DNA from: Escherichia coli
GTDB taxonomy: Bacteria > Pseudomonadota > Gammaproteobacteria > Enterobacterales > Enterobacteriaceae
Assembly (NCBI RefSeq): GCF_003018115.1
Contig: NZ_CP027457.1
Strand: one strand, 5' to 3'
DNA length: 64,000 nucleotides
Position 1 is the stretch's first letter; the number at the start of each line of letters is the position of its first letter. Below, piece after piece: positions 5,831 through 6,004 of this stretch. Both the position numbers and the translations under genes were made by a program. Below the pieces are notes generated by a model. The model made no database searches. It had not been told where the DNA came from and saw only the letters and a list, made by a program, of their open reading frames with translations.

Positions 5831-6004
5831 ATGACGACACTTATTTATTTGCAAATTCCTGTCCCTGAACCGATTCCTGGCGATCCTGTTCCAGTGCCCG
5901 ATCCGATCCCTCGCCCGCAACCCATGCCTGACCCACCACCCGATGAAGAACCGATTAAATTGTCGCATCGTGAGCGTAGATCTGCGAGGATACGCGCCTG
6001 CTAA
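5831..6004 (+). CDS. 57-aa proline-rich small protein (possibly the K-12 small ORF ynaL; symbol not certain)
   Basis: GGAGGG SD 5 nt upstream of ATG; ORF MTTLIYLQIPVPEPIPGDPVPVPDPIPRPQPMPDPPPDEEPIKLSHRERRSARIRAC; below the 60-aa cutoff of the ORF track. Confidence 0.5.
   Translation: MTTLIYLQIPVPEPIPGDPVPVPDPIPRPQPMPDPPPDEEPIKLSHRERRSARIRAC

Follow-up and report, generated by a model that had tools for sequence, protein, structure and literature searches.

Positions 5831-6004 on the plus strand of the window, which is the whole 64,000-nt stretch of Escherichia coli DNA analysed here, contain ynaL, a genuine free-standing small-protein gene that has already been catalogued and is rediscovered here. 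Comparison of 42 orthologous loci separates the gene into three zones: the N-terminus, a core of xP repeats, and the last 17 codons. According to their substitution patterns, only the core (residues 13-40) appears to be selected as protein, which would make it the functional unit, while the genomic neighbourhoods indicate a stand-alone gene that is tied to fnrS, independent of dbpA, and not primarily a dbpA leader. Taken as a whole, we consider it fairly probable that ynaL is a stand-alone gene, that its xP peptide acts in trans, and that its tail overlaps control blocks of dbpA.

Identity and annotation of ynaL

The gene and its immediate upstream features are as follows.

5831..6004, plus strand: ynaL coding sequence, 57 codons plus TAA, ATG start (RefSeq, Pfam PF23677, identity to the SPA-tag-verified K-12 protein)
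5821..5826, plus strand: Shine-Dalgarno sequence of ynaL, GGAGGG, 4 nt 5' of the ATG
5652..5769, plus strand: fnrS sRNA gene (Rfam RF01796, 134.8 bits)
5746..5773, plus strand: FnrS intrinsic terminator, a stem-loop (stem 5746-5765) followed by a run of eight T (terminator scan and sequence)

RefSeq names the product "proline-rich small protein YnaL" and carries the ynaL label in every E. coli record listed; the region itself was found in 5392 of 5426 complete E. coli genomes. Pfam PF23677 matches the translation with 136.9 bits (gathering score 27) and covers residues 1-57 of 57. The 57 residues are identical to those of the K-12 protein, which is encoded by the same gene in the same place between fnrS and dbpA, and all differences between the window and K-12 fall outside the ORF, e.g., in the Shine-Dalgarno sequence. 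Across species the latter reads GGAGG in most cases, AGAGGG in K-12, and AAAGGG in some cryptic Escherichia clades.

The protein is known to be made. VanOrsdel et al. 2018 detected YnaL by immunoblotting of a chromosomal SPA tag (PMC6001520) in LB cultures sampled in exponential and stationary phase, and the tagged protein accumulates. According to the same paper, ynaL had earlier come up, unidentified, among the positives of a tetracycline-inhibited ribosome-profiling screen. Beyond the fact that the protein is made, PMC6001520 reports on YnaL only a possible shared operon with dbpA.

The first-pass annotation, which was made from the letters alone, gave the position, length, and translation of this ORF exactly, as well as its Shine-Dalgarno sequence and its place 3' of the FnrS terminator and 5' of dbpA. 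Its view of the ORF as a real translated one is borne out by the immunoblot and the ribosome-profiling positive. The proline content, however, is 16/57 (28%) instead of the approximately 35% given there, reaching 50% within residues 10-41, and the RefSeq records show that the ORF is annotated, so that its description as unannotated is outdated.

Three zones under different selection

Two of the three zones, and the PPP motif that the first-pass annotation had pointed out, are located as follows.

5831..5866, plus strand: variable N-terminal segment, residues 1-12 (dN/dS 0.62, dS 1.55, near neutral)
5867..5950, plus strand: acidic xP-repeat core, residues 13-40, EPIPGDPVPVPDPIPRPQPMPDPPPDEE (dN 0.143, dS 1.45, dN/dS 0.10)
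5933..5941, plus strand: PPP codons CCA CCA CCC within DPPPD, residues 35-37 (sequence)

The N-terminus is the least conserved part of YnaL and differs in both length and sequence between genera. In the core, first and second codon positions are fixed and third positions are free to vary. Its dS of 1.45 is saturated (the neighbouring genes dbpA and zntB have dS 1.7) and the amino acids are nevertheless kept (dN 0.14), a pattern of purifying selection at the protein level. Its conservation extends from Escherichia to Erwinia and Mixta. The codon-substitution check proposed in the first-pass annotation reveals purifying selection on the reading frame across Enterobacteriaceae and Erwiniaceae.

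PPP is kept in 37 of the 42 loci and lost in five. PSP takes its place in E. albertii and three Citrobacter, where all consecutive prolines are gone, and PPQ does so in C. amalonaticus. AlphaFold2 assigns neither helix nor strand to YnaL (pLDDT approximately 90 at residues 21-40, pTM 0.23), and the core is predicted to be an extended rod of the polyproline-II type with no globular fold.

The peptide thus comprises a 12-residue variable head and an acidic xP segment of about 28 residues, built of DPxP units that end in DPPPD; its gene has a strong Shine-Dalgarno sequence and most likely a promoter of its own. We infer a trans-acting role for YnaL in the cytoplasm, where it would serve as a short proline-rich binding ligand. 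DPPPD is a well-established type of EF-P-dependent motif, and synthesis of YnaL would need EF-P at this point.

Predicted promoter

A candidate promoter abuts the FnrS terminator.

5772..5799, plus strand: predicted ynaL promoter, TTGCCT-N16-TACCCT (-35 at 5772-5777, -10 at 5794-5799, inferred start approximately 5806)

The -35 hexamer TTGCCT overlaps the end of the terminator T-tract. According to a crude weight matrix, this is the best sigma70-like site in 5560-6040, with a score of 7.47 (top 0.16% of plus-strand positions of the window), and a consensus promoter scan of 5500-6150 found no promoter. In the alignment the hexamers are invariant and the 16-nt spacer is variable. Variants of the -10 element occur at the same place in Klebsiella (TACGCT) and in a Kosakonia-like locus (TATTTT), Erwinia has TTGCCA-N17-TATGCT, and three Citrobacter loci have a 9-nt deletion in the proposed spacer. 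The matrix score, the alignment, and the detection of YnaL in LB cultures make a weak sigma70 promoter belonging to ynaL itself the most likely arrangement; alternatively, transcription reading past the FnrS terminator could drive its expression. In the MFE fold, CUACCCU pairs with GGAGGG upstream of ynaL in a hairpin that would sequester the Shine-Dalgarno sequence (z-score -0.38).

Linkage to fnrS and dbpA

All 42 loci have ynaL downstream of zntB and fnrS, with approximately 34-105 nt between the FnrS terminator and ynaL. The sRNA gene was matched by blastn in the window and in loci L001-L030, and RF01796 places it at this same distance 5' of ynaL in Klebsiella, Raoultella, Kosakonia, Leclercia, Phytobacter, Mixta, and Erwinia.

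As for dbpA, it adjoins ynaL in 36 of the 42 loci, all of them Enterobacteriaceae, with a stop-to-start distance of 14-62 nt. In the window the GTG at 6034 lies 29 nt past the ynaL stop, and GTG is the start in nearly all adjacent loci; the exception, L023, is probably a 3-nt alignment offset.

6023..6036, plus strand: weak dbpA translation start, GAG, an 8-nt gap, and GTG at 6034-6036 (sequence)

The other six loci keep ynaL and its upstream fnrS with no adjacent downstream dbpA. In Phytobacter (L035 and L043), an Enterobacter sp. lineage (L039), and Mixta (L041), convergent ttcA follows ynaL with no dbpA in between, and in Erwinia (L036 and L042) ttcA lies between ynaL and dbpA. Read by eye, a terminator-like inverted repeat stands 3' of the ynaL stop in five of these six loci. 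The ynaL core is intact even where no gene follows on the same strand.

Invariant blocks in the last 17 codons

The third zone is conserved in a different manner. Its dS is 0.14, versus 1.7 in dbpA and zntB, and synonymous change is nearly absent because two invariant blocks lie there.

5951..5969, plus strand: invariant block A, CCGATTAAA[T/A]TGTCGCA[T/A]C, codons P41-H46 (invariant runs of 9 and 7 nt)
5979..5998, plus strand: invariant block B, GATCTGCGAGGATACGCGCC, codons R50-A56 (19-nt invariant run)

For comparison, the longest invariant run in the 1371 nt of dbpA is 5 nt. Both blocks are present in 36/36 loci with adjacent dbpA and in 0/6 without it. Phytobacter, Mixta, Erwinia, and one Enterobacter lineage lack them and have a different ynaL end, and block A is absent or degenerate where dbpA does not follow. 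In the Kosakonia cowanii cluster YnaL ends in ...PIKMSR. In L038, a Kosakonia-like locus with an early ynaL stop, the blocks remain as non-coding DNA, block B being intact. Conservation of the blocks is thus a matter of nucleotides, and the basic E. coli tail IKLSHRERRSARIRAC is not conserved for the sake of the peptide.

Block B lies 40-42 nt 5' of the dbpA GTG in every locus counted by eye, and Erwinia dbpA has TCTGcTACACTcaGCGCC at the equivalent distance. Blocks A and B belong to dbpA, most likely as its promoter or operator, or possibly as an mRNA element. The leading candidate for block B is an extended -10 promoter, TGcGAGGAT with a GC-rich discriminator; as a sigma70 site GAGGAT is weak (rank 15 of 454). 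A comparable arrangement is provided by the 3' end of zntB, which holds the fnrS promoter region, so that there too an upstream ORF ends in regulatory DNA of the gene that follows. Just before the fnrS promoter, the final zntB codons have a 9-nt invariant run and four consecutive invariant third positions; they share the signature of blocks A and B and are the only other spot with suppressed synonymous change in the three genes. In comparison with the zntB end, however, blocks A and B extend over more sequence (19 and 20 nt), and the agreement of their hexamers with the sigma70 consensus is poor.

Several other assignments were tried and not upheld. Sites for sigma28, sigma54, sigmaE, sigmaH, FNR, CRP, ArcA, NarL, Fis, and boxA, compared by eye with the consensus sequences, gave nothing convincing in either block. 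Mimicry of 23S rRNA hairpin 92, the DbpA target, was rejected: by eye, the blocks contain no GGC-UGUUC-GCC-like hairpin, and the sole TGTTC, near 5886, is not conserved. A small CsrA-site-like hairpin, GCG-AGGAUA-CGC, is broken without compensation in Kosakonia. A YnaL-DbpA fusion by recoding or frameshifting was rejected, since the -1 frame, in which dbpA lies, has a TAG two codons before the GTG, and an overlapping +1 ORF at 5943-6089 is broken by indels in other species.

Alternative explanations

The first-pass annotation suggested that the ORF might be a regulatory leader peptide. On this reading, translation of ynaL, slow at xPxP and EF-P-dependent at DPPPD, would gate dbpA through Rho acting on the C-rich RNA or through failed termination-reinitiation at the GTG, so that a 50S-assembly helicase would respond to elongation capacity or to the supply of proline. 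The layout gives it some ground, since wherever dbpA adjoins ynaL (36 loci, all Enterobacteriaceae) only 14-62 nt separate the stop from dbpA, which has a weak Shine-Dalgarno sequence and, in nearly all, a GTG start. In addition, no 78-nt stretch of the 64-kb window is more rut-like than the core RNA (44% C, 19% G), with a C/G ratio of 2.5 (99.96th percentile), and PPP is retained in 37/42 loci. EF-P is reported to protect transcription-translation coupling at polyproline (PMC5021804), and leader ORFs with proline codons exist, e.g., mgtP (PMC3641672; PMC5299641). However, ynaL is kept behind fnrS in the six loci in which dbpA does not adjoin it, its core is intact where nothing follows on the same strand, purifying selection acts on 28 residues and hence on more than the Pro codons, PPP is lost in 5/42 loci, including E. 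albertii and three Citrobacter with no consecutive prolines left, and the distance from stop to dbpA start is not fixed. Were block B a promoter, ynaL would be missing from most of the dbpA mRNA. Moreover, the tagged protein accumulates.

RNA structure argues in the same direction. No terminator was found by the scan between ynaL and dbpA, and neither an antiterminator nor a significant RNA structure was detected. For the stretch that joins the end of ynaL to the start of dbpA, the MFE z-score is -0.17, and RNAalifold reports -10.4 kcal/mol with 0 covarying pairs in a region whose invariance leaves no covariation to test. Regulation of dbpA as the main role of ynaL is therefore unlikely. 

Among the closest known systems are mgtP and mgtL of Salmonella (PMC3641672, PMC5299641, PMC6460261), likewise short proline-rich ORFs with consecutive Pro codons 5' of another gene, whose translation speed depends on EF-P or charged tRNA-Pro. 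An attenuator of this type would be expected to lie in the 5' leader of the regulated gene throughout and to overlap alternative RNA structures (terminator or antiterminator, or Shine-Dalgarno sequestration); mgtP and mgtL act via such leader structures, with a peptide that is otherwise unconserved. In contrast, ynaL overlaps no such structure that could be detected, has a selected 28-residue core, and survives in loci where no gene comes after it. As for the coupling described by Elgamal et al. 2016 (PMC5021804), PPP in an upstream ORF together with C-rich RNA could likewise sensitize downstream transcription to Rho when EF-P is limiting; the effect was shown with reporters only, and it would be superfluous for dbpA if block B is its promoter. 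Because ynaL ends close to the weak-SD GTG of dbpA and its mRNA is strongly C-rich, its translation may still have a secondary cis effect on dbpA via Rho polarity or translational coupling.

A broader scheme combines both roles. Here fnrS and ynaL would form an obligately linked sRNA/small-protein module from Erwinia to Escherichia, behind which dbpA was placed in Enterobacteriaceae, so that the 3' end of ynaL acquired a second use as the carrier of a 20-nt plus 19-nt invariant control element of dbpA. On read-through transcripts, EF-P-dependent translation of the C-rich ynaL RNA would gate Rho and tie dbpA, the 50S-assembly helicase gene, to elongation capacity, and the polyproline-II peptide would keep a separate function in trans. 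We regard this full scheme as quite improbable. The module and its dual-use layers may be new, being apparently undescribed in the literature as far as we found.

The other proposal of the first-pass annotation, a small periplasmic or membrane-associated peptide, holds up poorly. The first nine residues are mildly hydrophobic (9-residue Kyte-Doolittle maximum 1.52), and the proline stretch resembles the periplasmic spacer of TonB in composition (NCBIfam TonB E = 0.00029). That spacer, an (EP)n(KP)n rod with alternating X-Pro like YnaL, is expected to be extended polyproline-II as well. However, the best 19-residue Kyte-Doolittle window reaches only 0.63, i.e., YnaL has no hydrophobic segment of transmembrane or signal-peptide length, and its N-terminus has no basic n-region, varies in length, and is the least conserved part of the peptide (dN/dS 0.62). 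TonB matches are far under their cut-offs, namely 20.8 versus 315 bits for NF008084 and 11 versus 33 bits for Pfam TonB_N PF16031. Unlike TonB, YnaL has neither a hydrophobic membrane anchor nor a C-terminal domain, and membership in the TonB family was rejected. Export or membrane association of YnaL is thus very improbable.

An arrest peptide of the SecM/TnaC/MifM type is an even more doubtful candidate. In this case the ribosome would stall at or near the stop codon on the C-terminus ...SARIRAC-stop and so lay open the region of the dbpA start. The last seven residues are almost invariant in Enterobacteriaceae, the rare codons AGG and ATA (AGG and AUA in the mRNA) are invariant, the stop lies near the dbpA start, and the C-terminus resembles the SecM arrest motif, GIRAGP. 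The conservation of this tail, however, is at the nucleotide level (dS 0.14), with block B kept though untranslated in L038. The Kosakonia cowanii cluster, Phytobacter, Mixta, and Erwinia have no such tail. Klebsiella and Raoultella have four or five extra residues after RAC, so that the distance between motif and stop varies, and Kosakonia has SERIRAC. Conservation of the motif as a peptide wherever the ORF occurs, as would be expected of an arrest peptide, is thus not seen in YnaL.

Least probable of all is a translated but functionless ORF conserved only through overlapping nucleotide signals, which suits the last 17 codons, conserved for nucleotide-level reasons, but is contradicted for residues 13-40 by the opposite pattern (saturated synonymous sites, dS 1.45, with amino acids kept, dN 0.14) and by the conservation of the core from Escherichia to Erwinia and Mixta.

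Significance

As the rediscovery of a catalogued gene, the finding in itself matters little. The comparison, however, narrows the options for YnaL, whose functional unit would be the acidic xP-repeat core, and shows that the partner ynaL keeps across loci is the gene for the anaerobic sRNA FnrS, not dbpA. The apparent conservation of the basic C-terminus probably reflects an overlapping dbpA control element. Because this element overlaps the 3' end of ynaL, C-terminal tagging, deletion, or mutagenesis of YnaL would also disturb dbpA control, which applies to the published SPA-tagged strain too. Conversely, those studying dbpA expression would have to seek its control region inside ynaL.

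Identity and context of ynaL

The ORF that the first-pass annotation placed between fnrS and dbpA re-translates from the window exactly as quoted there, and its Shine-Dalgarno (SD) sequence and flanking features also agree with that description.

5652-5769, + strand, FnrS sRNA (Rfam RF01796, 134.8 bits)
5746-5765, + strand, stem of the FnrS terminator, with a T-tract up to 5773 (terminator scan)
5821-5826, + strand, ynaL SD GGAGGG, 4 nt 5' of the ATG
5831-6004, + strand, ynaL ORF (ATG, 57 codons, TAA stop)
6034, + strand, dbpA start GTG, 29 nt past the ynaL stop

The proline content, put at about 35%, is somewhat lower by count (16 of 57 residues, 28%), with 16 of the 32 residues 10-41 being proline. 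Nor is the ORF missing from annotation: megablast finds region 5560-6100 in 5392 of 5426 complete E. coli genomes, and every record among the matches listed carries ynaL, "proline-rich small protein YnaL". The 541-nt query is identical to strain 2013C-3342. The K-12 gene order is zntB, ynaL, dbpA, ttcA, and the protein scores 136.9 bits against Pfam PF23677 (YnaL; cut-off 27). The identical 57-residue sequence from the fnrS-dbpA interval was catalogued by VanOrsdel et al. 2018 (PMC6001520), who detected it in LB cultures by chromosomal SPA tag and immunoblot, report it among the positives of an earlier ribosome-profiling screen that used tetracycline inhibition, and comment on its context only that ynaL is possibly in an operon with dbpA. 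The ORF is thus real and translated, and finding it is a rediscovery of a known gene; full-text searches returned no function assigned to YnaL. As for its SD, GGAGGG in the window corresponds to AGAGGG in K-12 (locus L001, J53) and AAAGGG in the cryptic Escherichia clades and E. whittamii; the window therefore does not come from K-12.

Distribution and neighbourhood

A protein search returned 164 relatives, all 164 tagged PF23677, from Escherichia, Citrobacter, Salmonella, Enterobacter, Klebsiella, Raoultella, Kosakonia, Leclercia, Lelliottia, and other genera. Searching 1.84 billion representative proteins with a profile brought in shorter, remoter members, with Phytobacter, Mixta, Erwinia, and Kosakonia cowanii named in their clusters. 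The loci compared comprise 29 at species level and 11 retrieved via exact protein look-up. The CorA-family gene zntB lies upstream of ynaL in all loci, and in the 42 tested fnrS ends about 34-105 nt 5' of ynaL, while dbpA is directly 3' in 36 of 42; fnrS, not dbpA, is therefore the constant partner of ynaL. Among the 6 exceptions, 4 have convergent ttcA next after ynaL and lack an intervening dbpA: Phytobacter (L035 and L043), an Enterobacter sp. BIGb0383-like lineage (L039), and Mixta (L041). In Erwinia (L036 and L042), ttcA is interposed between ynaL and dbpA. Read by eye, 5 of these 6 (all except L042) have a terminator-like inverted repeat 3' of the ynaL stop. Directly upstream of zntB, RefSeq annotates a 15-codon ORF, "protein YnaN" (L001 1453-1500, approximately window 4512-4559).

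Selection along ynaL

Substitution rates were computed from a codon alignment of 31 ynaL sequences, with Nei-Gojobori dN and dS taken from 11 species representatives.

Table. Substitution rates in three zones of ynaL and in neighbouring genes
YnaL residues 1-12: dN 0.96, dS 1.55, dN/dS 0.62
YnaL residues 13-40 (acidic xP-repeat core): dN 0.143, dS 1.45, dN/dS 0.10
YnaL residues 41-57: dN 0.129, dS 0.14, dN/dS about 0.9
dbpA: dN 0.062, dS 1.71, dN/dS 0.036
zntB: dN 0.065, dS 1.75, dN/dS 0.037

Purifying selection on the proposed frame is borne out by the core (dN/dS 0.10), which is under ordinary purifying selection at protein level and uses all four synonymous proline codons. Two nucleotide-invariant blocks lower synonymous change about ten-fold across the final 17 codons.

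5951-5967, + strand, block A, CCGATTAAA[T/A]TGTCGCA, identical in 31/31 aligned sequences
5979-5997, + strand, block B, GATCTGCGAGGATACGCGC, identical in 31/31 aligned sequences

Invariant runs in ynaL reach 19, 9, and 7 nt; the longest in dbpA (1371 nt) is 5 nt, with just 4% of third positions invariant. The sole comparable spot is the final zntB codons, directly 5' of the fnrS promoter. There (5542-5556) synonymous change is suppressed, with 9 nt in a row and 4 successive third positions invariant, a signature of regulatory DNA inside an ORF end that is shared with ynaL. The nearby TTGAGCGAAGTCAA (5603-5616), centred about 42 nt upstream of the FnrS 5' end, resembles the class II FNR site of the fnrS promoter.

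Invariant blocks linked to dbpA

Both blocks are intact in Klebsiella, Raoultella (AATTCTGCGAGG), Kosakonia (CTGAGAGG), and Leclercia, and both are absent in 6/6 loci without adjacent dbpA, block A having decayed to GCCGTATAAACTATCGCGG in L039. In the Kosakonia-like locus L038, ynaL stops early (...PIKLSR*), and block B persists unchanged but untranslated between that stop and dbpA; the protein of a K. cowanii cluster found on hundreds of contigs is likewise truncated (...PIKMSR). GAGGAT lies 40-42 nt 5' of the dbpA GTG in every locus counted by eye, be the ynaL stop as near to this start codon as 14 nt (Klebsiella) or as far from it as 62 nt (L038). Persistence without translation, absence without adjacent dbpA, and the fixed distance together indicate a nucleotide-level element tied to dbpA, and the seemingly conserved YnaL tail ...SARIRAC is a reflection of it.

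With GAGGAT (5986-5991) taken as a -10 hexamer, the pattern would agree with the geometry of RNA polymerase contacts, with conserved -47 to -29, variable -28 to -20, and conserved -19 to +1 segments, TG at -15/-14, and ACGCGCC as a GC-rich discriminator. In Erwinia, where dbpA is preceded by ttcA and by an inverted repeat with a T-run, the gene is likely to require a separate promoter, and TCTG[C/T]TACACTCAG[C/A]GC occurs there 39-41 nt before GTG, matching block B at 12 of 21 positions (by-eye alignment) with TACACT over GAGGAT. Two results, however, count against a simple promoter: GAGGAT ranks only 15th of 454 sites by a crude sigma70 weight matrix, and the opposite strand of block B (TATCCT) outscores it (8.87). 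Under this matrix, the minus-strand TATCCT (5987-5992), with TCGACG 17 nt upstream (6010-6015), scores above every other sigma70-like site of the region, whichever the strand, and could be an antisense promoter directed into ynaL; other genera do not conserve its -35 part. RNA structure as an explanation for the blocks found no support (fold z-score -0.17), and RNAalifold reported no covariation, invariance leaving nothing able to covary. Directly 5' of the dbpA SD, Raoultella (L032 2687-2700), Klebsiella (L031 2696-2709), and Kosakonia (L033) carry GCCCTTTAACAC, GTCCTTTAATAC, or GCCTTTTTATCG, which resembles the antitermination motif boxA, GCTCTTTAACAA; at this place in E. coli no boxA-like sequence occurs.

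Expression of ynaL

The best sigma70-like site of 5560-6040 is a predicted ynaL promoter.

5772-5777 and 5794-5799, + strand, predicted promoter TTGCCT and TACCCT, 16-nt spacer

Its score of 7.47 is in the top 0.16% of the window by a crude weight matrix; a stricter consensus scan reported no promoter for the ynaL region. Invariant hexamers around a variable spacer are seen in 28 of 31 aligned loci; 3 Citrobacter loci, with a 9-nt spacer deletion, are a counter-example. The position-equivalent -10 is TACGCT in Klebsiella, Raoultella, and Mixta and TATTTT in L038, and Erwinia has TTGCCA-N17-TATGCT. The T-tract of the FnrS terminator runs into the predicted -35, an overlap that would explain why fnrS and ynaL always occur together. 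Alternatively or in addition, ynaL mRNA may arise by read-through of transcripts begun at the FNR-dependent fnrS promoter. Within 5790-5826, pairing is possible between the invariant CUACCCU (5793-5799) and the ynaL SD, GGAGGG(U)A (6 bp in Citrobacter and Salmonella). This pairing appears in the minimum-free-energy fold, which is on a par with those of shuffled sequences (z = -0.38), and since it uses the bases of the proposed -10 hexamer, the two readings compete.

The YnaL protein

The core alternates X-Pro over about 20 residues (VPVPDPIPRPQPMPDPPP) and is acidic (D/E 7 versus K/R 1); the E. coli tail is basic (6 K/R among 16 residues). AlphaFold2 with the family alignment gives neither helix nor strand (pLDDT about 90 at residues 21-40, pTM 0.23), a model in keeping with an extended segment of polyproline-II type, not with a fold. 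The suggestion of a periplasmic or membrane-associated peptide fares poorly: YnaL is probably not exported and has no transmembrane-length segment (19-residue Kyte-Doolittle maximum 0.63). Matches to TonB were compositional only and far under the cut-off. PPP is retained in 37 of 42 loci, and Erwinia has an additional PPP directly ahead of the stop. Given what is established about EF-P motifs, translation of DPPPD would be expected to depend on EF-P. E. albertii and 3 Citrobacter have PSP, without any consecutive prolines, and C. amalonaticus has PPQ. Repeat length varies in frame, with an 11-codon deletion in L009 (E. coli E69), a 21-codon deletion in the related protein P0131, and a 10-residue duplication in the Salmonella protein P0053; these changes look like slippage between 12-nt DPxP units.

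Role of ynaL

On the best-supported reading, ynaL stands as a gene by itself, and its functional product is the xP-repeat core, an extended ligand rich in proline that most likely works in trans; in Enterobacteriaceae its 3' end would have been co-opted as a carrier of dbpA control sequences. A leader effect on dbpA may be a secondary role, favoured by the weak dbpA start (GAG, 8-nt gap, GTG) and by a core RNA that is the most rut-like stretch in the window (44% C, 19% G). At 5858-5947 the C/G ratio of this RNA over 78 nt is 2.53 (99.96th percentile of the 64 kb), a by-product of the Pro codons; left untranslated, the RNA would have an ideal composition for Rho loading. Transcription-translation coupling at polyproline is, moreover, protected by EF-P (PMC5021804). 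As the main role, however, the regulatory leader peptide proposed by the first-pass annotation is weakened and probably incorrect, because ynaL occurs without adjacent dbpA, 28 residues are under protein-level selection, PPP is lost in some lineages, the stop-to-start distance varies, and no alternative RNA structures were found. A C-terminal arrest peptide, suggested by the likeness of RIRAC-stop to SecM GIRAGP, is contradicted by the nucleotide-level conservation and dispensability of the tail.

To a known gene the analysis adds the division of ynaL into three zones of selection, its linkage to fnrS, and the invariant blocks within it that are tied to dbpA; any work that alters the C-terminal end of ynaL has to reckon with these overlapping blocks.
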